Positions 2,876 to 19,742 of a stretch of DNA of 32,000 nucleotides are shown here, piece by piece (positions within the stretch are counted from its first letter, which is position 1; every line of letters begins with the position of its first letter). A program made the position numbers and the translations under genes. The notes beneath the pieces were generated by a model. That model did no database searches. It had not been told where the DNA came from and saw only the letters and a list, made by a program, of their open reading frames with translations. This DNA comes from Abditibacteriales bacterium (lineage in GTDB: Bacteria; Armatimonadota; Abditibacteriia; Abditibacteriales; Abditibacteriaceae), in the NCBI GenBank assembly GCA_038236075.1, contig JBBSTH010000003.1:2426-34425 (forward strand), in the 5' to 3' direction.

Positions 2876-5800
2876 CTACTTCTGCTCCTTTTGATTTTTA
2901 GCCAGCCATTGCTTGAAAGTTGCGCTATCTGGTGGCACCAAACCATTGGCAGCGAACTGTTGCAAGTCAGAGAGAATAACATCAAAAAATCGCTTGCCAT
3001 GCACTTTGGTCTGCTTGTTTTGGCGGCACAGTGCGATGGCTTTATCGAGTTGATCGTTGAAGAGATAACCATGAACCAGATTAACCGCGATCCAAGATTG
3101 GTCGGGTGCCATGGCAAGACCGCGCGAGGCATCGGAGATCGCTTCTTTGGGACGATGGTAAAGCACTTCGAGATAAGCCATTTGTCCCAGCGCCGAAGCC
3201 GCCTGAGGCTGCACCTGGTCTTTAACTGGCGTGTTTTTTAGCAACTCGAATTGTTCCAAACTTTTCCGGTAAGCGGCGCGTGCGGGCAGCAAGTTCCCCA
3301 AGCTTAACTGAGCGTCGCCGATATTGGCGTAGATTTCCAGTAACTCTTGCTGAACTTGCAGATTGCCCTTGTCTTTTGCCAGGTTTTCCAGCAGCGGCAA
3401 ACTTTTAGCGAAGAGAGGCAATGACGCGGCGATTTTCCCTTGCGAAAGCGCGAGCACACCCAGACGATTCCAGCTTGTGCTGAGGTCGTGTTGCGCTTCG
3501 GCGTTACTCTTATCTTTAGCTAATTCCAGAGCAATGTTCAAACTCTTATGAAAGGTTTTGATGGCGGCATCCGTTTGATTTTGCGCCAGTTGCAATTCGC
3601 CAATGCGGTCGTAAACGGCGGATAAATCGCGGAGCGGTTCGGCTGTGGCGGTGCCATCTTTGTGGGCGCGTTTCACCAGTTCAGTCGCCAGCGGCAACGC
3701 CAAATCGTAGGCTTTTCGCGCTTTATCGTAAACCTTTTGATCGAATTGAACATCGCCACTTTTCATGGCGGTTACCAGTAAGTCGCGCTGAGCCTGTGTA
3801 TTTTCCTTGTCTTGGGCCAACACCGCGCGGATATCCCAGGCTTGTGCGTAGGCTTGTGCGGCACCTTTGTCGTCTTTGAGCAATTGCCGCACATCGCCCA
3901 TCTTTTCTAGGCTAACCGATAAATCGCGTTGAGCCGTCGGAGCGAAATCGCCGCGCGCTAAATCGGTGCGAATCGCCAGGCTTTTGGCGAAAAAGTCCTT
4001 CGCTTTTTGCAATTCGTCGGTGGCCTGATAGCTTTCGCCCATTTTTTCGTAGTTAGTTGCCAAATCGCGCCATGCACCGGGAGTTGGTTTATTCTTGGAC
4101 AGTTCCTCGGTAATAGCCAGGCTTTTTTGGTAGGCCGCGCGCGATTGACTCAGATCGCCCAAGGTCTGCCAAGTATCGCCGATACGTTGCAAGTTGACCG
4201 CTTGTTCGCGGCGCGCAGTGGGCGTTTGGGAATCCATCGCCAAAATCCGATCCAGCAGGGCGATGTTTTCCTCAAAAATCGCTTTGATGATCGGGCGACT
4301 TTCCGGGACATCGGCCAGCTTATCCGGAATTTCGTAAGTCCACTTGCCGATGGCATCCAAGGCCAATTTTTTCTGCACTGCCGTCTTTTGCCATTGAAGA
4401 TAGCTAAAAGTGCCAAAACCCGCGATCATCAGGAAAAACGTCGCCAACACGCTACTGATAATCGTCCACTTCTGGCGTCGAGCGCGTCGCACCCGTTGTC
4501 GTGAAGCCTGAATGTATTCGATGGTGTCCGAATCCAAATCGGTCAGGCGCAGACTGATCATATTTTCGGCTTCGGCCAGGGGCATACCCTCGCGCAGCAG
4601 AAAATCCGGGCGTTTATCTTCGGTCTGCCAGTGAGTGACTTCAGCGGTGATACGCGTGCGCGCGCGCAGAAAATCAATGTCGCCCACCAGCCATTCTTGA
4701 AGGCGTGGCCAGTGTCGTAGCAAGGCTTCGTGCGCCACGCGAATCACCGGCTCTGCCGCCGTGGCCCCTGTGCCCTCCGCTTCGTCTACGACCAACAAAC
4801 GGGCGTCAATGAAGGCTTTAATCAGCGTGCGCCGCGCTTCGTTGGTCACCACGCTATTTATCATTACGCGCCGCGCGGCGATGAGGGAATCGCGCTCGGT
4901 GTCAACCGTGACCAGCGCCCGCAAAACGCCCGGCAACTCTGCTTGCGCCGCCTTGGAAAGCGACTGAAAAACGGCTTCGGCACGCTCGGCCAAAGCGCCT
5001 TCCAATCCGCCCAATTGACGATAAGCCTCGAAGGTCAACACGCCTTTTTCTGTGCGGCTTTTGAAGAGTTCATCGAGAGTGAATTGCAACAGGGGCAACG
5101 CGCCGGGGTTTTTGCCAGCGGCATCGTGTAGCACATCGCTGAGGCGTTCTCCGCTGATGGGATCGACTTCAAAACGCAATCCTGCCGCGCGCGTGGGTTG
5201 AATGAGAATTTGGCCGATTTCGGCAAACGTGGGCGGCACCAAATGATATTGGCCGCTTCCTTCCTTGAGCTTCACCAAATCGGGAATTTCGGCGCAGCGA
5301 GCGTAAAAGTCACTGCGCATCGTCGCTATAATGGAAATCAGACCGCTACATGCCAAAACCGACAATACCGCAACAAAGGTTTGGCGTTCCTCTGCGCCCA
5401 GCCAATCGAGCGTGAAAATTTCCTCAAACTGATCCACCAGCAACGCCAGGCGAGCCGCTGGCACCGAAGCGAGTTGTTCCTGTTCTTGAGTCGCTAACGC
5501 CGCCTTTTCCAACGCTGCGTGCAATGAACTCACGGCGCGTTGCGGAGCTTCGCGGAGCAGAGCGGCCAACTCGGCCGCGTCCATGCCGATTTCTGGCAGG
5601 GCTTTGGGTTCGAGTAACGCCAAGGCCAGACCGTAGAGCAGATCATCGGAAGCATCGCTGGGCTTAAAAATGCTCCAACGCCACAGAGCCACGCCTTCGA
5701 CAACGCCCGGTTGAGTGAGCGTCGGCAAAACACCGGCGCGCACCAGAGACGACTTGCCGCTGCCGCTCATGCCGAAAATCATCAGGAACGAACAACCTTG

Positions 5801-7447
5801 AGCGGCATGGCGCACCAGAGCATCTCGAATCTCGCCAATGGCGCGCGTGCGCCCAAAGAAAATCGGGGCGTGTTCCATATCGAAGGCTTCCAGGCCGCGA
5901 TAGGGCGAGCCTTTGTGCCAGCGAATCGCAAAGGTGCCTTCCTCTGCGTCGGAGCTGAATTTTGGCAGGCGTTCTTTGATGAGCTTGCGCAGGTGACTTT
6001 CCAGCAATCGCTCAAATTCATCGGGCGTGGGAAAATTGTGGAAGGCGGCCTTGAACGTTTCCTGGGCGTTGCCAAACCAGCGATCAATGAAGGTATCGAG
6101 CGCCTTTTTTTGCGCGAGGCGTCCGAGCAGAGCCTCTTCATCACTCATGCTCGCCAACGGCTCGGACGATTTGCGGTAGACCATCAAATCGGGCGTGCCG
6201 CGCTCCTGGAACGAAGCCAACGCGTCCTCGAATTCCCATTCGGTGCCAGAAGAATAGAGCGTTCCATCGGAGCGCCGAAACTGTTCCGGCAAGCGCGTGC
6301 CTAACCGTGACCACAAAATACAAATCACGATGTCGGTGGAAGAAGGCGGAATGATTTGTTCTTGAAAATGGCTGGTCGCGCGCAACGGTTCGTGTTCCCA
6401 TAAAATTGGCACCAATTCCACAAAGGCCGCGAATTCGCCCTGCAAGCGTTCCACCACGCGCGTTGCAATTAAACGTTCCTGTCCCACGTCGCCGGGCGAC
6501 GAAATGAAAATTTGCAGCCTTTTCGGGGACGATTCGGCGGGTGGGGTGGACTCCTCGGCAGAAGGCTGGATTTCGGCGCGCGCTGCTACTTTTTCAATTG
6601 CAACCTCTTGAACTGAAACGCCTGTGTTATCGGATTGGGGAAGAATGTGGGCAGATGTCTCACCATCGGCATCGAGAATCGGCGTTTCCGCTTCCTCTTT
6701 ATCGAACAGTTTTTCAGCTTCGTCATGGAGAGCTTCTTCGTGCGCGATGATTTCGGCGTCTTGCTGAGAAATAACGGTCAAAGAACCAGAAACGCCGTTC
6801 GAGCCGTGAAGAGGAACCGGCAAACTTTCGGTAGGATTAACTTCCTCGTCCACATTCGGCGAAGGCAAAGCAAGCGGCGCTAATGTGACGATTTCTGGAA
6901 TGGCATTGGTATTTGAGGGTAATTCTTCAGCGGATTCTTCCGTGACCTCGCTTTCTTGGCTTGGAGCGGCGGGCAAAGCGGGAAGTTCGAGAGCGGCTTC
7001 AATTTGTGGGAAGGTTTGAGCGGGAGCAAAAATCGCGGCCACCGGGGCGCAGCAAAGGAAAATTTTGTCTTCCAGATCGTTGCGCAGCAGGCGAAATTCG
7101 TAAAAATCTACGGGTTGGGCCAGCGTTTTCTGCAAAAGCTCTTCATATTGTTCCAATGTTTCCGTAAGTCCTTCGATGCGGCTAACAACCGTTGAGGTTT
7201 GCGCGGGTGGGCAGTCCGCGAGACGCCATTCTTCCAGGCCGTTGAGTCCGAAGCGAGTCAAGGTGGCACCGTGACGCGCGAGCAGTTCTTCCAGAACCTG
7301 CCCTAATTTGGCTTGTCCTTGGGCGCGCTCTTGCAATTTCGATTCAGAGAGCCGTGCCACCTCCTCCACGAATGAGATGTAATCATCCCATTCGGTCGCT
7401 TCTGCGGGAAGCGTCTTCAATTCGTCGAGCCAGATATTCCATTTCAT
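2876..7447 (-). CDS. Giant STAND-class P-loop NTPase: N-terminal helical domain, acidic disordered linker, DUF4062/TIR-like Rossmannoid domain, nSTAND-type NTPase, one TM helix and a C-terminal TPR array
   Basis: This is the 1533-aa ORF in the track. The listed start at 7477 is TTG. I prefer the in-frame ATG at 7447 (MKWNIWLD...), which is preceded by GAGGGA 5 nt upstream. The motif IFISSPGDVGQER...DIVICILWSRLGT...SGTEWEFEDAL (track aa 320-437) resembles DUF4062. Walker A is FGMSGSGKSSLVRAGVLP; I verified nt 5750-5773 translate to GMSGSGKS. Walker B is LALLVDQFEEIF. The hydrophobic helix is WTIISSVLATFFLMIAGFGTFSYL (nt 4400-4471). About 400 aa of TPR-like repeats follow (xxLGDxxxxxGxxxxAxxxYxKSLxI). 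Confidence 0.85.
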   Translation of the reverse strand: MKWNIWLDELKTLPAEATEWDDYISFVEEVARLSESKLQERAQGQAKLGQVLEELLARHGATLTRFGLNGLEEWRLADCPPAQTSTVVSRIEGLTETLEQYEELLQKTLAQPVDFYEFRLLRNDLEDKIFLCCAPVAAIFAPAQTFPQIEAALELPALPAAPSQESEVTEESAEELPSNTNAIPEIVTLAPLALPSPNVDEEVNPTESLPVPLHGSNGVSGSLTVISQQDAEIIAHEEALHDEAEKLFDKEEAETPILDADGETSAHILPQSDNTGVSVQEVAIEKVAARAEIQPSAEESTPPAESSPKRLQIFISSPGDVGQERLIATRVVERLQGEFAAFVELVPILWEHEPLRATSHFQEQIIPPSSTDIVICILWSRLGTRLPEQFRRSDGTLYSSGTEWEFEDALASFQERGTPDLMVYRKSSEPLASMSDEEALLGRLAQKKALDTFIDRWFGNAQETFKAAFHNFPTPDEFERLLESHLRKLIKERLPKFSSDAEEGTFAIRWHKGSPYRGLEAFDMEHAPIFFGRTRAIGEIRDALVRHAAQGCSFLMIFGMSGSGKSSLVRAGVLPTLTQPGVVEGVALWRWSIFKPSDASDDLLYGLALALLEPKALPEIGMDAAELAALLREAPQRAVSSLHAALEKAALATQEQEQLASVPAARLALLVDQFEEIFTLDWLGAEERQTFVAVLSVLACSGLISIIATMRSDFYARCAEIPDLVKLKEGSGQYHLVPPTFAEIGQILIQPTRAAGLRFEVDPISGERLSDVLHDAAGKNPGALPLLQFTLDELFKSRTEKGVLTFEAYRQLGGLEGALAERAEAVFQSLSKAAQAELPGVLRALVTVDTERDSLIAARRVMINSVVTNEARRTLIKAFIDARLLVVDEAEGTGATAAEPVIRVAHEALLRHWPRLQEWLVGDIDFLRARTRITAEVTHWQTEDKRPDFLLREGMPLAEAENMISLRLTDLDSDTIEYIQASRQRVRRARRQKWTIISSVLATFFLMIAGFGTFSYLQWQKTAVQKKLALDAIGKWTYEIPDKLADVPESRPIIKAIFEENIALLDRILAMDSQTPTARREQAVNLQRIGDTWQTLGDLSQSRAAYQKSLAITEELSKNKPTPGAWRDLATNYEKMGESYQATDELQKAKDFFAKSLAIRTDLARGDFAPTAQRDLSVSLEKMGDVRQLLKDDKGAAQAYAQAWDIRAVLAQDKENTQAQRDLLVTAMKSGDVQFDQKVYDKARKAYDLALPLATELVKRAHKDGTATAEPLRDLSAVYDRIGELQLAQNQTDAAIKTFHKSLNIALELAKDKSNAEAQHDLSTSWNRLGVLALSQGKIAASLPLFAKSLPLLENLAKDKGNLQVQQELLEIYANIGDAQLSLGNLLPARAAYRKSLEQFELLKNTPVKDQVQPQAASALGQMAYLEVLYHRPKEAISDASRGLAMAPDQSWIAVNLVHGYLFNDQLDKAIALCRQNKQTKVHGKRFFDVILSDLQQFAANGLVPPDSATFKQWLAKNQKEQK

Positions 7448-7694
7448 AAATCCCTCAATTTCCTGTTTTTTGAACAAAAATTAAAAACTGCGATGGCACA
7501 ATTCACTTTTGCGTGCGTTATGTGTTATATTTTCTCTTAAGTGAGTGTTTATCGCAGTATAAATGTATTGGCAGAGAGTATTTTTGTGACAAGAAATCTT
7601 TGATGTCGAGAATTCAATTTTAAACTTGTCAATATCTTGTTTCCCCTGCCAAATATGTTTGCGCTGACTGTTTATTGTTGCCAAAAGGATTTGC
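7448..7694. promoter_or_regulatory. AT-rich divergent promoter region between the STAND gene (-) and the 7695 gene (+)
   Basis: This 247-nt non-coding gap is clearly more AT-rich than its flanks and separates two divergently oriented genes. It contains several TATAAT-like hexamers (TATAAA, TTATAT, AAATAT). No single -35/-10 pair is convincing. Confidence 0.4.
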
Positions 7695-10553: not shown

Positions 10554-12563
10554 CTATCCGGCGTGTGGCACTTCGAGTGGGCGTTCGCGGTGCAACATCA
10601 CCCAGTCGCCATTTTCGGCCAGGGCTTCGCGGCCCAGTTCGTGAAGCAAGGTCGAAGTCTTATGGGAGTGTCCCACCGACAGTTGGGCTTCGAGTTCCTG
10701 GCAAGCGGTTTCAAAGAGTGTGCCCATGCGTCCGTAGCGTTTGGAATGTTCGGCGCGCGCCATCAGCGCATTATATCCGTGCAGCAAACCGGCGGTGACG
10801 GCGAGCATCACGATACAAATCATGATTAGAGCGTGCGTGAGCGGCACTTCGACCATCGCTTTGAACGGCTCCAGCAACGGTAGCGGCAAAAGAGAGGGCA
10901 ATGTCAGCAGTAACCCAAGCGCAACCGACAACGCGATGCTGGCGACGACCAAAGCGCCGATCAGTTTTTCCTGTTTCTCTAACTCGTGGTGTTCGCGGTG
11001 CGCTTTGCTCACATAGTAATTGCGTTGATCTTGTGCCCAACTCTGCACGATCAGCGACAACGGTGCGGATGTGTGAGGCGCCGACTTTTGCTGCGCATCA
11101 GCCAGCACGTTGCAGCTTTTAATGGCGTGACGAATCCAGTTGAGTTCGCCGCGCTGTTTGCCCAGATAATGATCGCTCACGTCGTCGCGCAGACCCGCCA
11201 AACGCCAGTAAATCTGCACGCGCAACCCTTCGGCCAGGGCGCGGTAATCTTGATATTTGGTTTGTAACTCTTGCTTTTCGGTGCGTCCGTGCAACACGAC
11301 ATTGACGACCACTAAAAGAAGATAAAGCCATAAAAACCAGGGCAGCAACGACCATAACGACGCCAGCGAAAAGCCACCGTGCGATTCATCGGATGTTTCG
11401 ACAGGGAGAATTTCTCCGTGCGTCTCAGATACCGTGGGGGCGGCGTGGCTGGTGCTGCCGTGTTCGGCAGTAGCGGGCACATCGGCACCAATTGCAGCTT
11501 CGTGTTCCGTTGGTGAGGTAACAGCAGATGTCGCGTGTGAGGAATTCCCGGTTTCGTGATGAGTGCCGTGCGGCAGCGAGTGAAACAGGTTGAAACTCAA
11601 CGCGGCAAAAAACACGAGCAGAAAGACTCGTCGCGTAGCGTGCGCCATTTGGCGCGCGAAAACGCTCGACATCGCGTCCGACCAGCCGTAAATGGTCATC
11701 GGAAAACGCAGATTATCGGGAATCTCCGTGTTGCTAGCGGTTTCCGCGTTGTCGGCGGACGCGATGAGATAGTTCGCATTGCGCTGGGCGCTATCGCCCA
11801 GGGTCGCTCGCAGTTTTTGAACGTCGGCATTGAAAGCATCAATGCGACTAAAATCTTCTGCGGCTTCTGCGTTGGGTTTGATGTGAAGCGAGAAGGGTTC
11901 GCCCGCGCCTGCGGACAAGGGGCGCGACTGGCGCGGTGTCACGAGATGATGGACGGCGCCATATCCGGCGCGTTCGAGCGGCGAAATCACCGGCCCGTAG
12001 GGCGGCGGCGCGCCGTGCAAGCGCAAGCGCACGATATGTGCGGTGCCTCCGGTGCGCTCGTGTTCGGGCAAGTCGTCACCGTCCCACAGCGCCAGCAAAA
12101 TGTGGCTGTAACGCGCCAGATATGCGCCCATTGCGGCGTATTGCCCCTCGATTTGCGCTTGGGTTAGTTCGCCCGCAGCCATGCGATTTTCCTCCTCGCT
12201 GCCCGCCACCCAAGGCAAGGTAAACACTTCGCTGGCGCGTTCGAGCAAACCGGCAAATTCGGCGCGCGATTCGTCACTGCTGAAACTCTTTTCATACTGT
12301 TGACGTGGCAAGGGCAAGGGCACGATCAAGGCACAGCCTTCTTCCAGTGCTACGCACGCGATAAGGCGGTCGGCGCCCTCGCCCAGAGGAGAAAGCACGA
12401 TGAGCGGCGTGTGAGGATAGCGCGCGCGAAACGCGCGCAGTTCGCGCCGCACAACCTCGCGTAGCGGCTCGATGTCTTGCGGGCGCAAATCGCTGTGGCC
12501 GGTGATGCCCACGAAAAGCGGCAACAGATCAGAAGGCAAATCGGCGGAAGAGGAAGGAGTCAT
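10554..12563 (-). CDS. SLOG-like Rossmannoid (putative nucleotide-sensor) domain fused to two 2TM hairpins (SLATT-like putative membrane effector)
   Basis: 669-aa ORF with ATG at 12563. Residues 14-210 show a strand/helix pattern: FVGITGH, LSPLGEGADRLIACVAL, ALIVPLPL and ILLALWDGD...TGGTAHIV. This resembles SLOG/LOG/YpsA-type folds, where the GGT loop corresponds to the PGGxGT loop of LOG. Four hydrophobic helices lie at aa 311-330, 401-425, 534-555 and 575-597. Each pair is followed by an amphipathic helix (KYQDYRALAEGLRVQIYW; ARAEHSKRYGRMGTLFE), as in SLATT/DUF4231-type modules. The CDS call is strong. The domain assignment is inference. Confidence 0.8.
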   Translation of the reverse strand: MTPSSSADLPSDLLPLFVGITGHSDLRPQDIEPLREVVRRELRAFRARYPHTPLIVLSPLGEGADRLIACVALEEGCALIVPLPLPRQQYEKSFSSDESRAEFAGLLERASEVFTLPWVAGSEEENRMAAGELTQAQIEGQYAAMGAYLARYSHILLALWDGDDLPEHERTGGTAHIVRLRLHGAPPPYGPVISPLERAGYGAVHHLVTPRQSRPLSAGAGEPFSLHIKPNAEAAEDFSRIDAFNADVQKLRATLGDSAQRNANYLIASADNAETASNTEIPDNLRFPMTIYGWSDAMSSVFARQMAHATRRVFLLVFFAALSFNLFHSLPHGTHHETGNSSHATSAVTSPTEHEAAIGADVPATAEHGSTSHAAPTVSETHGEILPVETSDESHGGFSLASLWSLLPWFLWLYLLLVVVNVVLHGRTEKQELQTKYQDYRALAEGLRVQIYWRLAGLRDDVSDHYLGKQRGELNWIRHAIKSCNVLADAQQKSAPHTSAPLSLIVQSWAQDQRNYYVSKAHREHHELEKQEKLIGALVVASIALSVALGLLLTLPSLLPLPLLEPFKAMVEVPLTHALIMICIVMLAVTAGLLHGYNALMARAEHSKRYGRMGTLFETACQELEAQLSVGHSHKTSTLLHELGREALAENGDWVMLHRERPLEVPHAG

Positions 12564-12607
12564 AAATTTTTAGTGATAGCGAGTTAATTCTCAGACTTTG
12601 GTGCGTT

Positions 12608-14386
12608 TCAATCTGCGGCAGTTTCTTCAACAGAAGCATTGAGACGAAGCACCTGAAAACCGGCACCGGCCAGAAACGCCGGAATCGCGCGCACGACATT
12701 GCGATTCCAGTCGCGCATATTCTCGGGTAATTCATCCCACGTCACCAAATTCGGGTTGGTTCTGCGTTGATTATCGCGCGGCCCGGTTTTCCAGCCCGTT
12801 GCCAACCGTTCTTTCGTCCAGCGAGTGTGTTCCAATTTTGCCATGAGTTCAACTTCGGCGGGCGTAAATTCGTGAGTGCGTGCGTCCCAATCCCACAGCG
12901 GCGCAATGTCGCAGCCGATGGCCGCCAACTTTTCGCCGATGTGCAACGCCTGCGCGCGATTCGATTCGCGCGCTTCTTCAGGCAACTCGTCCCACGGCAC
13001 CAAAAGCCCGTTGGAGCCAGTTTGTGCGGCTTCTTCTTGATCTTCCAGATAGCGTTCGTGGAGCGCGCGCGCCAACAATTCCGGCACTCCGCCCAACACC
13101 AAATCGGGTTGACAGGCACGCTCCATCAATCCCAGCGCGTGTAGCGTTTCAAAGCGCCGACCGGAGCCACGAATTTCGCGCAGCAATGAAGTTAGTCCCG
13201 AGTCCTCCTGCATCGCAGCCACGACGGGCACACCCGTCACGCGTAAACGCCCGTGCAACGCCAGTGCTGCCGCCAAACTCGCCGCGTCATCGGGCAAGCA
13301 GACGTAAACCCGCGAAACGCACGGCTCGCCGTCTTCATCGAACAAAAACTGAGCGCGATGGAACTCTGGATCGCCTGCATCGAGCGAGAGCGTGGACAAC
13401 TCACACGTTGCGCTCAGTTCGGGATGGCGCAGATGCAACAGTTCGGCAATCCGTTCGGCGTTGCGGTCTATGAGCAGACAACGCAATTTCTCGCGCTCTT
13501 GCGGAGGCGATGACTGGGGCGCATCATGCCAGGCGCGCGCGCTGTGGACGAGCAAACTGCGCCCCAGCCGGCCCGCTCCCACGATGAGCAGCTGCGGAGC
13601 GCCTGACGCGGGCAGCGAAAACGCCGGATGTTCGTCGAGCAAGGCGCGCGCGGCAGAGTCCACCAGATTGAAGAATTGTAGGCGAAACGAGCCGCTTGCG
13701 GAGATTTCCCATTCGCGCAAAAGCGCCCACAGGTCGGCGTCCACGATGTGAACGCTGCACACCAACGGATCGCCCGAAGGGCGCCGCGTCGCGCAATCGC
13801 GGGCGCGCGCGGCGATTTCGGCGTTGATGCCATCGTCGCCGCATAAGGCGATCACCGTCTGCGCGCGCGCGATACCCGCGTTTTCCAGAAGAATACGCTC
13901 GCGCGGATCGCCCAACAGCACAATCGCGCCCAACTCGCGCGCGACTGGCACGAAATCGTTGTTTTCGTCGCTTTCCAGGGCCACGACCTGCACGCCGCGC
14001 TCGCAAAAAGCGCGCACCAAAAGCAAGCCGCGTTTGTCCAGTCCACAGACGATGATGTGATGTTTGAAACGGCGCAGACGGAGTTGTTGCCAGCCGTCGC
14101 CCCGCACCAGAAACGAAGCAATGGCCGCGGTTAAAAACGAGAGCGCGCCGATGCCCGCGAACATCAAAAACAGCGCGATCAAGCGCCCGCCCAACGTGCG
14201 CGGAAATACGTCGCCATAACCGATGGTCGTTACCGTCACCATCGCCCACCAGAAGCTGTCCCACAACGAAAGTTGAGGCGAAACCGGCTTCTCGAAGTGA
14301 TAAAATCCCAGCGCGCACGCCACGACCAAAACCATCAACGCGCCCAAAATGGCGGCGACAAGCGAGTTTTTACCCGGTTTGTTCAT
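12608..14386 (-). CDS. 2TM K+ channel fused to an RCK/TrkA-N domain, a second Rossmann-like domain and two C-terminal RyR (ryanodine-receptor repeat) domains
   Basis: ATG at 14386. The selectivity filter is VTVTTIGYGDVFP; I verified nt 14210-14230 translate to TTIGYGD. Hydrophobic helices flank it. The RCK motif is HIIVCGLDKRGLLLVRAF..GVQVVALESD. The second GxGxxG motif is LLIVGAGRLGRSLL. Two RyR-like repeats follow: LARALHERYLEDQ...LVPWDELPEEARESNRAQALHIGEKLAAIG and MAKLEHTRWTKERLATGWKTGPRDNQRRTNPNLVTWDELPENMRDWNRNVVRAIP. Confidence 0.9.
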   Translation of the reverse strand: MNKPGKNSLVAAILGALMVLVVACALGFYHFEKPVSPQLSLWDSFWWAMVTVTTIGYGDVFPRTLGGRLIALFLMFAGIGALSFLTAAIASFLVRGDGWQQLRLRRFKHHIIVCGLDKRGLLLVRAFCERGVQVVALESDENNDFVPVARELGAIVLLGDPRERILLENAGIARAQTVIALCGDDGINAEIAARARDCATRRPSGDPLVCSVHIVDADLWALLREWEISASGSFRLQFFNLVDSAARALLDEHPAFSLPASGAPQLLIVGAGRLGRSLLVHSARAWHDAPQSSPPQEREKLRCLLIDRNAERIAELLHLRHPELSATCELSTLSLDAGDPEFHRAQFLFDEDGEPCVSRVYVCLPDDAASLAAALALHGRLRVTGVPVVAAMQEDSGLTSLLREIRGSGRRFETLHALGLMERACQPDLVLGGVPELLARALHERYLEDQEEAAQTGSNGLLVPWDELPEEARESNRAQALHIGEKLAAIGCDIAPLWDWDARTHEFTPAEVELMAKLEHTRWTKERLATGWKTGPRDNQRRTNPNLVTWDELPENMRDWNRNVVRAIPAFLAGAGFQVLRLNASVEETAAD

Positions 14387-14410
14387 AATTTCGACGGCGC
14401 GCTTGCGCCG

Positions 14411-14552
14411 TTAAAACTTATGCAGCAAGAGAACCCGGAGCGGCAGCGACATGGCTTACAGTGCGACGTGGCTTACTGCACACAAGGCCAACTCCCCTGA
14501 CTTCGTCGGGTGCCCGCTTCCGCTCCGGGTTCTCTTGCTGATTAAGTTTTAA
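14411..14552. repeat. 142-nt long inverted repeat (33-nt arms, 76-nt core) in the intergenic leader of the K+ channel gene; structured RNA element or MITE-like insertion
   Basis: Arm 14411-14443 (TTAAAACTTATGCAGCAAGAGAACCCGGAGCGG) pairs with arm 14520-14552 at 31 of 33 positions, with one 2-nt internal mismatch. Pairing extends 4 bp further (14445-14448 / 14515-14518). The core carries a 14-nt direct repeat, GCGAC(A/G)TGGCTTAC, at 14446-14459 and 14463-14476. Confidence 0.8.
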
Positions 14553-14638
14553 ACAGTTCTCTCCAAGCAAACAAAAGCCGTTGGATGCGCGCCTTTTGCG
14601 CTGGTCTTCCACTCCCGAAATCGCGCCGATTCCCTGCT

Positions 14639-15526
14639 CTACTCGTCCAGCATTTTTATCGCTTGTTTCAGACTCCGTTGCATCCGGTTGAACGAGCTGG
14701 AAAGCATGGCGATTTCATCTTTGCCGTTGACTGGTAAATCTTCGACTTCCAAATTGCCTTTGGAAATTTCGTCCGCTGAGCGCGCCAATTGTTTGACCGG
14801 TGCCACAACAACACTGCGCAACATCAGGTTTAAAATCAGCAGCGTTAACAGCAAAATTCCCGCGAGTGCGCCCATCATAAGGCCCGTGATTTTGCGCGCG
14901 ATTTGTTCGGGAATGCCGACAGGCACCGAAACGATTTGCGCTCCGATGACCGAGTGCAATTTCCAGTTGAAACCGTTTTTCGAGCCGTAATCGTGAATCA
15001 TGGAAGCGGGCGCGACATTGGGTGTGCTATGGCAACTCAAGCACGACTGTTGCGTGACGCGGAGCGGGCGCGACATATAAAAGTAACGGCCTTTCGGCGT
15101 ATCGCGCAAACCGACGACCTCTTTGAGATTACCGTTTTTCTGGAAACTCTTGATGATGCTGGCTTCCCAGTCCACCGCCAAATCTTTGGTGTTGGTTGGG
15201 TTGAGCGTGGCCTCACGATAAAAATAATCGGGATAACGCTCCTGCATATAAGAAAAAACTTTTTGTGACGAAAACGCGGGAACGGTTTCGGGCACGAACT
15301 TGCCGTTGCGTTGCGACGGCAAAATCGGTTTGATTTGGTTCGAGGTATATTTGCGAACGGCGAGCGCATTTTCCATCATCAGGCGCGCATTGCCGGTCAC
15401 GATCTGACGCGCTTGTTGTTGCAACAAGGCATTGAAAACCGTCCCCGCGCCTACAATGCTCACCGCGAATACCACGAAGAAAACCAGATTGAACTTGGAC
15501 GCCAGGCGCCAGGAAGAAAAATTCAT
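14639..15526 (-). CDS. Membrane-anchored DUF3365 (Tll0287-like c-type heme) sensor domain plus HAMP domain, with no output domain
   Basis: The track start at 15565 is GTG. I prefer the in-frame ATG at 15526 (MNFSSWRLASKFNLVFFVVFAVSIVGAG, a signal anchor). The heme-c motif CLSCH is verified at nt 15029-15043. A second TM helix is ITGLMMGALAGILLLTLLILNLML. The HAMP motif is VVAPVKQLARSADEISKGNLEVEDLPVNGKDEIAMLSSSFNRMQRSL. The protein ends 8 aa after HAMP. Confidence 0.8.
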   Translation of the reverse strand: MNFSSWRLASKFNLVFFVVFAVSIVGAGTVFNALLQQQARQIVTGNARLMMENALAVRKYTSNQIKPILPSQRNGKFVPETVPAFSSQKVFSYMQERYPDYFYREATLNPTNTKDLAVDWEASIIKSFQKNGNLKEVVGLRDTPKGRYFYMSRPLRVTQQSCLSCHSTPNVAPASMIHDYGSKNGFNWKLHSVIGAQIVSVPVGIPEQIARKITGLMMGALAGILLLTLLILNLMLRSVVVAPVKQLARSADEISKGNLEVEDLPVNGKDEIAMLSSSFNRMQRSLKQAIKMLDE

Positions 15527-15624
15527 AGGAAAGAGAAAGAAGATGAGGTCACTATCGAATGGCACGCAGTTGTAAATCGAAAAGAAGCAGCGAAAGCTCG
15601 CTCGAAAGGTTTGACATTGGGCGA

Positions 15625-16557
15625 TTAAACGCGTTCTTCCTTCAAGAATACCTCGCGTTCCTCTGGCGTGGGCAGATTTTTGGCGAGCAAAATGTAAAGT
15701 TCGTTCACGTCTCTGGCTTTTTTGGATGCGCGTTTCACCAGCAAACGGGAGAGCGGCCCCATGTGAACCGCAAATTGGCGTTCGATTTTTTGCAAGACGA
15801 CTTCATCCCACACTTTTTCGCCAGTGGGCGTGGCTGATGGTGTCGCAGGGAGCGCCGTTGGCACGCCGAATAAAAGTGTCGTTGTTTCCAGAAAACGGGC
15901 GCGTTCGTCTTCTTTGGTGATGGAATGGCTCACCATTTGGCAAAGCGCGGCGCCATTGAACGTTTTCAGCGCACTCTGATGCACGATGACGCGGGCCATT
16001 GGGCCAATATAAAACGCCAGTTCGCGTTCGATGCGGCGCAAGGTATCGGGATTCCACCCTTCGCTTTCCTTTTTCCCCTCCGCATCGAGCGACTCAACGG
16101 GTTCAATTCCCCCTTCTTCGAGGAGCAACACGCTCTCTGTTTGTTCAGGTTCGGTGCATTGCAGCAGAGCGTGAATAGTTTTGGCGAGCCGTTCCAAATG
16201 CGCTTCGAGCGGCGGACTGAGCGCATCCAACCAGTGCGGCGTGCCGATGAAGTAACGCATATGCTTGGAGAGCGCCACGTCTTCTAAACGAAACGGCACG
16301 ATGGACAAACCTTCGGAGACTGCGTTTTGCACTTCGCGCTTGACCTGCTCGGAGATATTGGACGACGACGACAACAACAGCACGAACACGCGCGCAGAAG
16401 TGATTCCGTCAATAATGGCGTCACTCCAATCCTGGCCGGGCGTCACGTCGCGTGGCGCGATCCAGCAGCGAACACCGCGCGCTTCGAGCGTGCCGCACAC
16501 CGCGTCTGCCGTCAGTTTGTCCTGGTGAGCGTAGGAAATAAATACATCGAGCGACAT
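15625..16557 (-). CDS. TIR-domain protein with two tandem ~60-aa C-terminal helical repeats
   Basis: ATG at 16557. The N-terminus is a textbook bacterial TIR (TIR_2-like): DVFISYAHQDKLTADAVCGTLEARGVRCWIAPRDVTPGQDW..AIIDGITSARVFVLLLSSSSNISEQVKREVQNAV..GLSIVPFRL. The C-terminal repeats are WNPDTLRRIERELAFYIGPMARVIV...DERARFLE and WDEVVLQKIERQFAVHMGPLSRLLV...EEREVFLK. Confidence 0.9.
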   Translation of the reverse strand: MSLDVFISYAHQDKLTADAVCGTLEARGVRCWIAPRDVTPGQDWSDAIIDGITSARVFVLLLSSSSNISEQVKREVQNAVSEGLSIVPFRLEDVALSKHMRYFIGTPHWLDALSPPLEAHLERLAKTIHALLQCTEPEQTESVLLLEEGGIEPVESLDAEGKKESEGWNPDTLRRIERELAFYIGPMARVIVHQSALKTFNGAALCQMVSHSITKEDERARFLETTTLLFGVPTALPATPSATPTGEKVWDEVVLQKIERQFAVHMGPLSRLLVKRASKKARDVNELYILLAKNLPTPEEREVFLKEERV

Positions 16558-16599
16558 GAGAAACTTCGCCGGTTACGCGCGAGCGAAAACGACGTTAAT

Positions 16600-16881
16600 T
16601 TATTTGGCGATGCGAAACCCCATTGCCAACATGGTTTTGATGACCTGTTGCGCCACAACGCGATCATAATCTTTCTCGCTTTCGGAAAGCTCTTCGTAAG
16701 GCACAAGTCCCGGATGCTCTTTACGTTGATCGTCTCGATGCGGCCCATAGAGCCAACCGTCATCCAGACGTTGTTTTGCCCACACCTCGTGGGTATTAAT
16801 GGCGATTTCCTCCAGCAAAGCGGCGATTGATTCATCCAATTCGATATGGGAAGTATCAATCGGAGTAGGAATGTAACGCAT
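16600..16881 (-). CDS. Stand-alone RyR-domain protein (about 93-100 aa)
   Basis: The sequence ...LLEEIAINTHEVWAKQRLDDGWLYGPHRDDQRKEHPGLVPYEELSESEKDYDRVVAQQVIKTMLAMGF matches the RyR-repeat consensus (HE.W...R...GW.yG......k.hP.lvpY.eL.e.eK..dR). The start is ambiguous: ATG at 16881 (used here) or in-frame GTG at 16902 (track). Confidence 0.8.
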   Translation of the reverse strand: MRYIPTPIDTSHIELDESIAALLEEIAINTHEVWAKQRLDDGWLYGPHRDDQRKEHPGLVPYEELSESEKDYDRVVAQQVIKTMLAMGFRIAK

Positions 16882-16916
16882 GAAATTAGGCGCTTTTGGC
16901 ACAGCAATCCCTCTAA

Positions 16917-17000: not shown

Positions 17001-17774
17001 TTAGTCATTCATGGATTGGCAACGCACTAACGCATTTTGCATCGCTTCGGGGTGAACGGCCAAATCGCCGGTAAAGGCGTAGTTGAGCGCGCTGATGAGA
17101 AAAAGCACCAGAGCAATTATGATGGCGAGCAAACTCGTCATGGCGGCTTGAGTCTGAAATCGCTCTATGCCAAAGAAGAACGTGAAGGCGATGGTTGCCA
17201 TGCCGCCCAGAATCAACACGACCCACATCGGGCCGGGCACTCCACTGCGACTCGCCAGCAAGCGCAAGCGCCGGTTGTCGCCGACGTCGGTGAGACGGTC
17301 GAGAATTTGAGCCATCAGCACCGATTCAGTGGGAGTCAAACGCGATTTTTGAGTGCAACTGGCCCACAGCGCATCCAATGCGATCGAGGTGCCGTCATCT
17401 GACTGGCCCTGTGTCATCAGCGGCCATTCATTTTGCACCACGCGACGCGCGTATTGCGCTGACTTGGCACGCAATTCCTCTTTAAAGGGCGCTTGAAATC
17501 CCGTTGATAACCGGCAAACATCAACAATGGCGTTGGCCTCGCGCGCGGCGACGATTTCGGCAGCACCGTATCGTTCCCACACCACGAGCACCACAAAAGC
17601 CAACACCACCGCATAAATAACACCCACAATCGCCAGAATAAAACCTGCGACATCGTGATGTTGGCGCAAAGCGAGCGGCGAAGTGCGTGCGCGCACCAGC
17701 GCCAGACCGCCCACAGAAAACAACAGCGCGACGACCGTAATCGTCACGCATAGTAGCCATAAAGGTAATACCAA
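17001..17774 (-). CDS. DUF4239 / bestrophin-like membrane protein
   Basis: The protein has an N-terminal TM helix and a second TM helix followed by ...VVWERYGAAEIVAAREANAIVDVCRL..., where EANAI is the hallmark I associate with DUF4239. Two C-terminal TM helices follow. The start codon at 17774 is TTG, and no in-frame ATG lies near the N-terminus. Confidence 0.6.
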   Translation of the reverse strand: MVLPLWLLCVTITVVALLFSVGGLALVRARTSPLALRQHHDVAGFILAIVGVIYAVVLAFVVLVVWERYGAAEIVAAREANAIVDVCRLSTGFQAPFKEELRAKSAQYARRVVQNEWPLMTQGQSDDGTSIALDALWASCTQKSRLTPTESVLMAQILDRLTDVGDNRRLRLLASRSGVPGPMWVVLILGGMATIAFTFFFGIERFQTQAAMTSLLAIIIALVLFLISALNYAFTGDLAVHPEAMQNALVRCQSMND

Positions 17775-17861: not shown

Positions 17862-19742
17862 TTAAACCGGCTTGATGCGAACTTTGACTTTCAAATCGTT
17901 GGAGATGTGCTCCATTTTCAAGCCTCCGGCGCGGCGGCGTTCCAGCATTTGCTGTTGCGACATCGCGTTCGATGACGGCAGATTTACCGTCAACGCTTTA
18001 GCATCGAAGTCGCCATACGGTTCGCCGTTAATCGTGACCGATTCGATTTCGATGCTGCCCGGCGGCAACAAATCGGGCGCAACGCGCAAGATGTTGTCGG
18101 GAAAAGCGCCGATTTTGGGCTTGAAGTGAAAGTCCATCGCGGTCTTGGTGATCAGCAAGTTGGTATAGACCGCCGCCAGGTAGCACAGTTCAATCGAGTG
18201 GTAAGCGCCCATCGAGTGGCTTCCTTTTTGCCGTTCGTTGCCCAGCAAATACGGCAGACCGTTCGCCAGCACGTTGAAGTAAACCGCGCCCGAATCGGTA
18301 TCGAGGAACCACGCGTTATAAAACGCCGCCGATTCCTGCGCCAGCTTGCGATATTTGTCTTCGCCCATGCAGCCGGACAAAATCAAATACGCCAGAATGC
18401 CCTGTTCCTGCTGCCACCACGCTTTGCGGTCGTGGAATGCCAGCCGGTGAAAGATTTCGCCATCGGCCACGTGACGTTCCAAAACGTCATACCAACCGCC
18501 GCGCTGCTTGTCCATAGCCACGTCGGGCATGGCGTTGGCCAGTTTGGTGGCGAGCGCGGTATAGGAATCTTTGGCGCGCAGCGAGTTCATGCGCATCAAA
18601 TTCCACGCGATTTTCAAGTCGTGACCGCCCACAGCCCGATCCTGCTGCCAGCCCCAGGTTTTGTCGGCGCTCCAATCGTCGAAGAATTTCTCCTGCACGA
18701 ACGGCGAACCGTCTTTGGCCGGAAATCGCTGTTCAATGGTATCGAAGGTATATTCCAGAAACTTCGCGTATTCTTCGCGGCCCGTCGCCAGATACAAGTT
18801 AATGAGGTAGGCGGGCGCGTGGTCGCCGACCGAGTTCCAGTTTTTGCGCGCCTGATTGTGGCCCAACGATTCGGCTTTGGGATCGAAAGTATCGGTCGTG
18901 AGATGCGAGTAGTAACCGCCCGCTTCGCTGGTGTCGAGATAGTATTTATCGAAGAGCGCAATGGTTTTCTCGGTATCGCTGAGAATGGACGGATCGCCGG
19001 TGATACGGTAGGTTTGCACCGGCCCAGCGAGCGCGTAGATTTGTTCGTAAGCCGGAAGCGCGTTCCAGTCGTCGCCAAAGAGCGAGCCGAGATGTTCTTT
19101 CACGCCGTCGGGCGTCACTTCGAGCGCGTGCAGCCAGTAAACGACGCCTTCTTTGTCGCGCTTGGCGATTTTTTCCTGCAAATACTTGGTGCCCTTTTCG
19201 GCGGCTTCCAGAAAACGATCTTCGCCGGTCAACAGGTAAGCCGAAGCGAAACCATAAACCGTGCGCGAAATGGTATCGGTTTCCTGAATGCCCGAAGGCA
19301 GCTTGTCGCCATTGAGATACAGGTTGGTGCGGTATTTGGAGTAGTCCATTGGGCCGCCTTCAAACTGCGCCTTAATGTAAAAATCGGCGACCTGACGCGC
19401 CTGCTCGACCCACCAATCCGGCTTTTCAAACTCGAATTTGCCCGCGCTTTTGCCAGGGAAAACCAGGTGTTGCGCTTCAAATTTGTAGTCGCCGTCTTCG
19501 GGGTAAAACACGCCATAGGCGAACATATAGTTGCCGGGCACGAACAACTCTTGGAGTTGATCCATCGCGTTCTGATACGATTCGCCCAGATTGCGCGTGA
19601 ACTCGGCAAAAGTCGCGGAGGTCGTTTTGCCGGAGACTTCGGTGCCACCGGGCGTTTTGATGGTGAAGGTGCCTTTTTCGGCATCGGCTTGTGTGAGGTA
19701 TCCGGCAACAGTGTCGGAAAATATCCAGTTGATTTGGTTCAT
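17862..19742 (-). CDS. N-acylglucosamine 2-epimerase (AGE) superfamily (alpha/alpha)6-barrel protein with extra N- and C-terminal domains
   Basis: 626-aa ORF with ATG at 19742. The central region shows AGE-like helical repeats: TISRTVYGFASAYLLTGEDRFLEAAEKGTKYL, YEQIYALAGPVQTYRITGD, GDHAPAYLINLYLATGREEY, GGHDLKIAWNLMRM and WWQQEQGILAYLIL. Confidence 0.75.
   Translation of the reverse strand: MNQINWIFSDTVAGYLTQADAEKGTFTIKTPGGTEVSGKTTSATFAEFTRNLGESYQNAMDQLQELFVPGNYMFAYGVFYPEDGDYKFEAQHLVFPGKSAGKFEFEKPDWWVEQARQVADFYIKAQFEGGPMDYSKYRTNLYLNGDKLPSGIQETDTISRTVYGFASAYLLTGEDRFLEAAEKGTKYLQEKIAKRDKEGVVYWLHALEVTPDGVKEHLGSLFGDDWNALPAYEQIYALAGPVQTYRITGDPSILSDTEKTIALFDKYYLDTSEAGGYYSHLTTDTFDPKAESLGHNQARKNWNSVGDHAPAYLINLYLATGREEYAKFLEYTFDTIEQRFPAKDGSPFVQEKFFDDWSADKTWGWQQDRAVGGHDLKIAWNLMRMNSLRAKDSYTALATKLANAMPDVAMDKQRGGWYDVLERHVADGEIFHRLAFHDRKAWWQQEQGILAYLILSGCMGEDKYRKLAQESAAFYNAWFLDTDSGAVYFNVLANGLPYLLGNERQKGSHSMGAYHSIELCYLAAVYTNLLITKTAMDFHFKPKIGAFPDNILRVAPDLLPPGSIEIESVTINGEPYGDFDAKALTVNLPSSNAMSQQQMLERRRAGGLKMEHISNDLKVKVRIKPV

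Follow-up and report, generated by a model that had tools for sequence, protein, structure and literature searches.

A five-gene cluster in the genome of an Abditibacteriales bacterium (GenBank assembly GCA_038236075.1) raises the question of whether a TIR enzyme, ryanodine receptor (RyR) domains, a K+ channel and a SLOG-type membrane protein can act together as one nucleotide-signalling system. The window, which is the whole 32,000-nucleotide stretch of contig JBBSTH010000003.1 that was analysed (positions 2,426 to 34,425), contains five open reading frames (ORFs) in one run on the minus strand, at window positions 10554-16902. In order, these are gene 1 (16600-16902; 100 residues), a stand-alone RyR (Repeat12-type) domain protein; gene 2 (15625-16557; 310 residues), a TIR_2 protein with two C-terminal repeats; gene 3 (14639-15565; 308 residues from a GTG, or 295 from an ATG at 15526), a membrane sensor with a heme-c Tll0287-like/DUF3365 domain and a HAMP domain; gene 4 (12608-14386; 592 residues), a two-transmembrane (2TM) K+ channel with an RCK domain and two RyR repeats; and gene 5 (10554-12563; 669 residues), a YpsA-like SLOG domain with four transmembrane (TM) helices. 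The intergenic distances are 42, 59 (98 if gene 3 starts at the ATG), 252 and 44 nucleotides; this layout had been read from the sequence in an original prediction, and the ORF check of the window bore it out. We propose, at a probability of roughly 0.55, that the cluster is a conserved Thoeris-like signalling operon, in which a messenger made by the TIR protein would act on two membrane outputs and a RyR protein encoded by the host would buffer or hydrolyse it. As in Thoeris systems, a TIR with an intact catalytic glutamate adjoins an effector with a putative signal-binding domain (SLOG in gene 5; RyR in genes 1 and 4), and the cluster looks like a bacterial counterpart of the control of ion channels by cyclic ADP-ribose (cADPR).

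The cluster is a real unit, and its arrangement is not due to chance: it recurs across phyla, and its TIR and RyR genes are confined to the vicinity of gene-5 relatives. A scan for the gene-5 family in a collection of 185,579 species genomes gave at least 575 loci, the best 80 of which were analysed for linkage counts; these span Abditibacteriota, Verrucomicrobiia, Acidobacteriota, Armatimonadota, Ignavibacteria/Kapaibacteria, Chloroflexota, Gammaproteobacteria, Syntrophomonadaceae, and others. A gene-2-like TIR is present in 27 loci and a divergent TIR in one more, and of the 46 loci that are flanked by 3 kb or more on each side, 23 have a TIR. Most of the TIR genes (19 of 28) lie within 300 nucleotides of the gene-5 relative, and where the distance is about 3 kb, genes 3 and 4 lie between. 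The 28 TIR ORFs and the 17 RyR ORFs all fall within 4 kb of a gene-5 relative (498 kb in total), and no TIR or RyR ORF was found in 597 kb of farther flank around gene-5 relatives. The gene 4 ortholog, where present, is always immediately upstream of the gene-5 relative on the same strand, with an overlap or a short gap (12 of the 80 loci, plus the metagenomic locus L084 and locus L174); this adjacency of channel-RyR and SLOG-4TM genes is seen in at least 14 loci of at least three phyla, including Abditibacteriota, Verrucomicrobiia and Vicinamibacterales. In the complete genome of an Abditibacteriota bacterium (AP024152; locus L164), all five genes recur in this order, as do the genes upstream of them, and in L174 the same core of RyR, channel-RyR and SLOG-4TM genes stands behind a different TIR (TIR-WD40). 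Conservation of gene neighbourhood had been put forward as a check on the original prediction, and the homologs proved to be syntenic in other genomes and phyla. A metagenome scan with the channel alignment drew its patterns from the generic K+ pore, and 78 of its 80 loci are ordinary K+ channels; the informative ones are L084 and L107. One locus, L010 (CALQBJ020000001.1), is labelled as a Bifidobacterium breve metagenome-assembled genome (MAG) and has the gene layout of the Vicinamibacterales loci L006 and L007, with near-equal identities to the window proteins; it is likely mis-binned.

Linkage of RyR and TIR genes also extends beyond the gene-5 cluster. A protein search found 329 stand-alone gene-1-like proteins of about 93-130 residues, and in six of the 10 genomic contexts that were sampled a TIR_2 gene lies within three genes of the stand-alone RyR gene. 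The contexts include the full cluster (L164); TIR-WD40, RyR, a channel-RCK-RyR gene (47% identity to gene 4) and a gene-5 homolog (38% identity) in L174; and RyR beside TrkA_N-RyR and TIR-WD40, with no gene-5 relative, in L179. In L170/L171, L175 and L177, a TIR_2 gene and a stand-alone RyR gene occur with a homologous protein of about 360-415 residues, the L170/L171 member of which has a weak SLATT_1 match (E 2e-5); this recurrent three-gene set possibly represents a minimal TIR system with RyR, separate from the window cluster. In Priestia megaterium the order is PycTM, RyR and DUF4062-NACHT-WD40, with no TIR_2 within three genes; in L176 (3227-5786) isochorismatase-like and NAPRTase genes, of NAD+ salvage, precede the stand-alone RyR gene; and the two remaining contexts hold large unknown proteins. 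The position of the L176 gene in an NAD+ salvage operon echoes that of the phage RyR protein RyDEP, which lies inside the NARP1 NAD+-synthesis operon. Among the gene-5 loci, L025 and L074 encode AAA/STAND-RyR fusions. A Pelotomaculum MAG (L054 1000-4369) encodes a stand-alone RyR, a TIR-STING protein (CAP12-type TIR and prokaryotic STING) and a gene-5 relative in a row, a possible hybrid of CBASS-type and TIR-signal modules.

The domain assignments made in the original prediction (TIR, RyR, SLOG-like, channel, RCK, DUF3365 and HAMP) were upheld by Pfam, hhalign, AlphaFold2 and Foldseek. For gene 2, the TIR domain (16189-16545) matches Pfam TIR_2 at 5.1e-22, and the residue previously named as its putative catalytic glutamate, E75 (16333-16335), is invariant in an alignment of 22 TIR proteins from these gene contexts. 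The TIRs adjoining gene-5 relatives form one clade, with the N-terminus MAHDVFISY... and invariant F6, S8, D13, S63, S69, E75 and A79, and with C-termini that vary by locus: two DUF8082-type repeats, a protein kinase (Vicinamibacterales), a TM helix and further region, SH3, TPR-like, WD40, or PASTA-PEGA. Gene 2 probably converts NAD+ to a signal. Its C-terminus carries two repeats of about 59 residues each (15880-16056 and 15634-15810), and its ortholog in L164 has a precomputed Pfam match to DUF8082/PF26309. In the clade TIRs of L011, L019, L020, L029, L066 and L175, an N-terminal TIR is followed by an apparent hydrophobic stretch, as read from the alignment, and by a C-terminal region (SH3, PASTA-PEGA or unknown conserved); if so, their topology would resemble that of Toll-like receptors.

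Gene 3 matches the Pfam Tll0287-like/DUF3365 family at 1.9e-41 (142 bits; cut-off 24.1; domain at 14921-15421) and HAMP at 3e-14 (14663-14818), and has a CxxCH heme-binding motif at residue 175 (15029-15043), between TM helices at residues 25-43 and 222-240. It is predicted to be a periplasmic heme-c sensor; its HAMP domain is closest to that of Af1503, and no output domain follows. Because the L164 ortholog has 294 residues, the start of gene 3 is probably the ATG at 15526. The gene is found in 7 loci of the analysed gene-5 set, and its orthologs adjoin a TIR or channel gene in L001, L002, L003, L005, L009, L012, L016 and L164. DUF8082-type repeats occur in the TIR protein only where a Tll0287-HAMP gene is present (the window, L001, L005, L009, L012, L016 and L164), and gene 3 probably signals to gene 2, a proposal that has this co-variation of sensor gene and TIR repeats as its sole basis.

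Gene 1 matches Pfam RyR (PF02026) at 9.5e-34 (116 bits; gathering cut-off 27.4); in a PDB search, its best-matching stretch is the RyR2 repeat 862-950, and Bacteroides thetaiotaomicron 3NRT scores 8e-31. In phages, RyR-domain (PF02026) proteins bind 2'cADPR and 3'cADPR, and RyDEP hydrolyses both via H75 and D117, with W78 stacking on the adenine and H100 contacting the phosphates (PMC13232231); RyR Tad binds 3'cADPR with a dissociation constant of 43 nM, and 2'cADPR and cADPR below 1 µM (bioRxiv 10.64898/2026.06.04.730250). The most speculative link of the original prediction, that between RyR domains and cADPR-type signals, is now backed experimentally for phage RyR domains by these two studies. 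H38, W41, H63 and D80 of gene 1 are unchanged across 19 homologs; they have the spacing (3, 25 and 42 residues) of RyDEP H75/W78/H100/D117, a mapping based on equal spacing and the text of the paper, and they align with H129/W132/H154/D171 of RyR Tad. With gene 1 as the query, tblastn also gives a match to RyR Tad gp68. Gene 1 may be able to bind the TIR product and may hydrolyse it, and a role as host-side binder or hydrolase of that product is proposed here. Its residues do not separate a sponge from an enzyme, because high conservation with RyDEP is also reported for the non-catalytic phage homologs that were tested. The protein is probably a homodimer.

Gene 4 matches Pfam Ion_trans_2 (3.5e-19), TrkA_N (3.6e-15) and RyR (2.3e-14; residues 512-579, repeat b; 53.8 bits, cut-off 27.4). 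The 2TM pore (14105-14362) has a TTIGYGD selectivity filter at residues 53-59 (14210-14230), and is followed by the RCK/TrkA_N domain (13787-14065), a second Rossmann-like region, a degenerate RyR repeat a (12896-13096) and RyR repeat b (12641-12868). Repeat a (residues 431-497) lacks the GWxYGP loop and is missed by Pfam, and is recovered by the stand-alone RyR profile (hhalign probability 94%, E 1.4e-7), which confirms the second repeat that had been claimed for this protein. Against the PDB, the gene 4 profile matches MthK best (4.6e-26 over residues 12-199, pore and RCK), followed by repeat 2 of RyR3 (residues 976-1052) and RyR2 (residues 993-1063). The TT[IV]GYGD filter and both RyR repeats are invariant in 11 orthologs, as are the mapped repeat residues save at position 476. 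RyDEP H75 corresponds to H38 in gene 1, H520 in repeat b and H443 in repeat a; W78 to W41, W523 and Y446; H100 to H63, N544 and N459; and D117 to D80, N561 and N476 (Ser in two orthologs). In both channel repeats Asn thus takes the place of the catalytic Asp and the first His is kept, with Trp kept in b and Tyr in a; we infer that they are non-catalytic sensors whose ligand may differ. The RCK-RyR family is large, with 1,883 clusters at 50% identity (E<=1e-30). Some of its members (L178 773-2596; L179 3154-4860) have no GYGD filter and a different 2TM N-terminus; the cytoplasmic RCK-RyR module is thus carried on more than one kind of membrane domain.

Gene 5 alone gives only sub-threshold Pfam matches, to DUF4231 (2.2e-4; 22 bits, cut-off 24.7) and YAcAr (0.028). 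An AlphaFold2 model built from a 34-sequence family alignment is confident (pLDDT 84.2, pTM 0.83), and shows an α/β domain at residues 16-230, long helices, a helical bundle and, at residues 341-398, a disordered loop. The top Foldseek match is YpsA (2NX2; probability 1.0, TM-score on target 0.65); ShosA, DprA, Moco-carrier/LOG-like proteins and LOG come next in rank, and TRPM8 and TRPM4 are listed at low probability only; from this ranking, the N-terminal domain (11874-12518) is assigned to the SLOG superfamily. Hydrophobic helices at residues 313-331, 406-424, 534-552 and 578-596 form two hairpins, hairpin 1 at 11292-11627, with a disordered loop after, and hairpin 2 at 10776-10964, within a helical region. 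Among the 34 family members, 15 match DUF4231, six match YAcAr, and six match SLATT_1 or SLATT_3; several relatives have precomputed PF18181, PF18184 or PF14015 matches, and GHR, GADR and GGT motifs are conserved in the family. DUF4231 presumably belongs to the SLATT clan, and these family-level DUF4231 and SLATT_1/3 matches, although weak, support the presence of two SLATT-like hairpins in gene 5, which is proposed to be a signal-gated membrane effector.

In the mechanism that we propose, the c-type heme domain of gene 3 would respond to a redox or gas signal in the periplasm, or to a cue from the envelope, and the HAMP domain of gene 3 would relay this to gene 2, the soluble TIR protein, probably via the DUF8082-type C-terminal repeats. 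The activated TIR (E75) would turn NAD+ into a cyclic-ADPR-type messenger. This would be read non-catalytically by the tandem RyR module that gene 4, as a tetrameric K+-selective channel, would carry on its RCK ring, and by the YpsA-like SLOG domain of gene 5, which would gate the two 2TM hairpins, while gene 1 would buffer or hydrolyse the messenger and so set the threshold or end the signal. K+ flux and permeabilisation of the membrane would result, and would end either in growth arrest or death, as Thoeris-like abortive infection, or in a graded response to stress; a two-tier output, in which reversible K+ flux comes first and permeabilisation after, is speculation.

Among known systems, Thoeris offers the closest comparisons. 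Its ThsA effector has a SLOG domain that is the receptor of 3'cADPR, and the SLATT effectors of type VII respond to cADPR. A December 2025 preprint (bioRxiv 10.64898/2025.12.03.692087) defines 29 putative Thoeris types, including type VII (ThsB TIR and SLATT effector ThsH; canonical cADPR as the signal) and type X (TIR and ion channel ThsK; signal unknown; validated as anti-phage), and lists in its Table S2 an unvalidated candidate, "TIR + SLOG and 4TM", from Streptomyces sp. GKU 895 and Ca. Nitrospira nitrosa (Yirmiya et al. 2025). The window cluster resembles type VII in having a predicted TIR generator beside a membrane effector with 2TM hairpins, here putatively SLATT-like, and with membrane disruption as the predicted output; in gene 5, however, the TM hairpins are doubled and a YpsA-like SLOG domain is joined to them at the N-terminus, the protein itself reaches SLATT matches only below threshold, gene 2 is in a different clade and has no phmmer match to the type VII TIR domain at E<=0.01, and the cluster has three more genes (sensor, RyR and channel). 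With type X it shares an ion channel gene beside a TIR gene, but the type X TIR falls in a type II-like cluster and has no match to gene 2, and the channel family of ThsK is not described in the text. The "SLOG and 4TM" candidate has the same described architecture, SLOG plus four TM helices by a TIR, the effectors being compared by description only; its TIR domains match only the TIR of L080 (E 8.7e-6), not gene 2, and its entry has no RyR, channel or heme-sensor component. TIR relatives of the Nitrospira candidate reach 64% identity, and the one usable contig has a UDPGP neighbour and no SLOG-4TM gene.

The remaining likenesses concern single proteins. RyDEP and RyR Tad share PF02026 with the cluster, and gene 1 keeps their His, Trp, His and Asp at equal spacing; those proteins are phage-encoded and serve immune evasion, whereas gene 1 is host-encoded, in a chromosomal operon with a TIR gene, one RyR module here is fused to a K+ channel with Asn for the catalytic Asp, and the role proposed is that of receptor or self-regulator. 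Like the animal ryanodine receptor, gene 4 is an ion channel with a cytosolic pair of RyR repeats, but the former is a 6TM Ca2+ release channel and the latter has a 2TM MthK/RCK-type K+ pore without SPRY, EF-hand or other RyR modules. With MthK, gene 4 shares the 2TM pore and TxGYGD filter followed by RCK (TrkA_N), to which it adds a C-terminal tandem RyR module and the TIR linkage. Gene 5 resembles TRPM2, which has a SLOG-like domain that binds ADP-ribose (ADPR), in coupling a SLOG-type fold to a membrane pore, but is not a TRP channel. The TIR and SLOG-4TM core is already catalogued as a candidate, and RyR as a binder of cADPR isomers is known for phages; the claim in the original prediction that the system is undescribed does not hold for the parts shared with types VII and X and with the "TIR + SLOG and 4TM" candidate, and stands for the host RyR parts, which are in no paper found. 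RyR and TrkA are not mentioned in the text or supplements of the December 2025 preprint, the two phage studies (2026 preprints; PMC13232231; bioRxiv 10.64898/2026.06.04.730250) cover phage proteins only, and no paper that deals with host RyR domains in TIR operons came up in the literature search. The searched literature has no description of host-encoded RyR parts, a RyR-bearing K+ channel in a TIR operon, a heme-sensor input, or a general RyR-TIR linkage.

Several observations weigh against a Thoeris-like operon. About half of the gene-5 relatives have no nearby TIR; in these TIR-less loci no partner recurs save one divergent TIR, and the immediate neighbours are mostly housekeeping genes. 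Both "SLOG and 4TM" candidates gave no defence in E. coli (bioRxiv 10.64898/2025.12.03.692087). PADLOC 2.0 (2023), the library of which predates Thoeris types V-XI, calls no system in the window, in agreement with the earlier statement that no named defence system of this composition is known; it has no matches for genes 1, 3, 4 and 5, and weak partial matches on gene 2 only, including ThsB models (best ThsB 2.4e-4). NCBIfam matches are far below cut-offs, with no system recognised. Both channel repeats lack the phosphate-binding His (Asn instead) and may therefore bind a ligand other than that of the phage proteins; the link from HAMP to the TIR repeats is based on co-occurrence alone; and a single-sequence structure model of gene 2 was unusable (pLDDT 50). 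Finally, the cluster lies beside housekeeping genes, which include isoamylase, epimerase and GMC-oxidoreductase genes, and this position, kept in three Abditibacteria genomes, is atypical of a defence island.

That last point belongs equally to the alternative that survives best, which keeps the same wiring and gives it a physiological purpose: the heme redox or gas sensor would drive a TIR messenger that tunes K+ flux or membrane potential, as in animal cADPR-Ca2+ signalling, without abortive infection. We regard this as possible, if rather unlikely. The Tll0287-type heme-c and HAMP architecture of gene 3 is a typical environmental input, the C-termini of the clade TIRs are of signalling type (Pkinase, SH3, PASTA-PEGA, TM helix and further region), a K+-selective channel is suited to graded output, and both the vertical inheritance beside housekeeping genes in three Abditibacteria genomes and the lack of a known defence system in the PADLOC run would fit. 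A role in defence is nevertheless somewhat more likely than a physiological one. The SLATT-like, SLOG and TIR parts point to conflict, since SLATT-type effectors and TIR-coupled SLOG domains are so far known from conflict systems; the family is spread patchily over many phyla (at least 575 loci among 185,579 species genomes); the sensor modules of the TIRs are swapped among loci; and conflict-type genes are among the neighbours (nSTAND1-TPR in the window; caspase-PEGA and TIR-TPR in L164; PycTM and NACHT by the Priestia RyR gene). The flanks of the cluster are mixed, with housekeeping genes on one side and the conflict-type genes of the window and L164 on the other.

Under a second alternative, the TIR protein would be an effector that depletes NAD+, and the RyR and SLOG proteins would handle ordinary NAD+ metabolites (ADPR, ATP/ADP), and K+ homeostasis would thereby be tied to NAD+ status. 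This idea is favoured by the nucleotide binding that is common among RCK domains, the TIR NADase effectors of CBASS, Pycsar and pAgo systems, the binding of ATP, ADP and AMP-PCP by the animal RyR Repeat12 domain, and the one stand-alone RyR gene in an isochorismatase-NAPRTase operon (L176). It is improbable, as the cluster has no upstream signal-generating enzyme (CD-NTase, cyclase or SMODS), gene 2 has the layout typical of sensing TIRs (N-terminal TIR and variable C-terminal module), and two putative ligand-binding membrane effectors by a TIR fit the generator-effector logic of Thoeris. That the five genes are not one system, a TIR and SLOG-4TM pair having K+ channel, sensor and RyR genes as unrelated neighbours by chance, would accord with the 252-nucleotide gap between genes 3 and 4, a promoter/terminator scan at chance level, the many gene-5 relatives without channel, sensor or RyR gene, and an RCK-RyR family far exceeding the gene-5-linked set, but is very improbable given the channel-RyR genes directly upstream of gene-5 orthologs in several phyla, the confinement of RyR genes to 4 kb around gene-5 relatives, the RyR-TIR linkage that is also independent of gene 5, and the co-variation of sensor gene and TIR C-terminal repeats.

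Of the genes surrounding the cluster, the nearest upstream encodes a bestrophin-like 4TM protein (17001-17774, minus strand; Pfam Bestrophin-like 8.6e-59), 98 nucleotides from gene 1 on the same strand. Its position is kept only in the close relatives L001 and L164, which makes membership indistinguishable from plain synteny, and it was rejected as a core part; the protein may be a further ion-channel component or a mere neighbour. A FecR gene was likewise rejected, as it is not conserved. Beyond lies a gene for a 626-residue GlcNAc-2-epimerase-like protein (17862-19742, minus strand) adjoining the cluster; such a gene is found by the cluster in Abditibacteria and Vicinamibacterales (L006 13319-15595; L007, L010, L018, L021), with 55-65% identity, and in L006 it follows the TIR-kinase gene with 3 nucleotides between the ORFs. 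This neighbour may reflect a functional link or the transfer of a block. About 3 kb downstream of the cluster, a 1,533-residue conflict-type nSTAND1 NTPase with TPR repeats (2876-7477, minus strand) shows, at residues 321-502, a weak resemblance to the PADLOC candidate system PDC-S60 (E 3.2e-7). A 401-residue protein encoded on the plus strand (1356-2561) has EF-hand matches in its N-terminal region (residues ~48-111); such calcium-binding proteins are not common in bacteria. Genes 3 and 4 are separated by 252 nucleotides here (14387-14638), by about 175 in L164 and by about 60 in L001; the stretch in the window contains no Rfam family and no convincing promoter or terminator. Across the window, tRNA and Rfam scans gave no matches and a promoter/terminator scan did no better than chance; a Pfam scan found no phage genes among the flanking ORFs, and the locus is chromosomal.

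The direct action of cyclic ADP-ribose on ryanodine receptors has been debated for decades, and we know of no cellular RyR-domain receptor. More tentatively than the operon itself, we suggest that the cyclic-ADPR messengers made by TIR proteins have their native receptors in host RyR (Repeat12) domains, and that in this operon the gating of a K+ channel is under the control of one such domain, with a periplasmic heme sensor acting upstream. There would then be a complete pathway from cue to TIR, cADPR-type messenger and RyR-gated channel, with a RyR off-switch; it would be the evolutionary source of the disputed link between cADPR and the ryanodine receptor in animals, and RyDEP and RyR Tad would be versions of the host receptor that phages have captured. 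The operon offers a small and tractable model, in which RyR repeats are carried on a simple 2TM K+ channel by a TIR enzyme, and the debated cADPR-RyR question becomes testable. If the proposal is true, Thoeris-type signalling gains two effectors, one a K+-selective channel and the other a SLOG-gated 4TM protein, as well as a buffer or hydrolase of the signal that the host itself encodes; the role of this last would have a counterpart in the ring nucleases of type III CRISPR systems. The periplasmic heme sensor suggests that bacterial TIR messengers possibly also serve environmental signalling, beyond defence.

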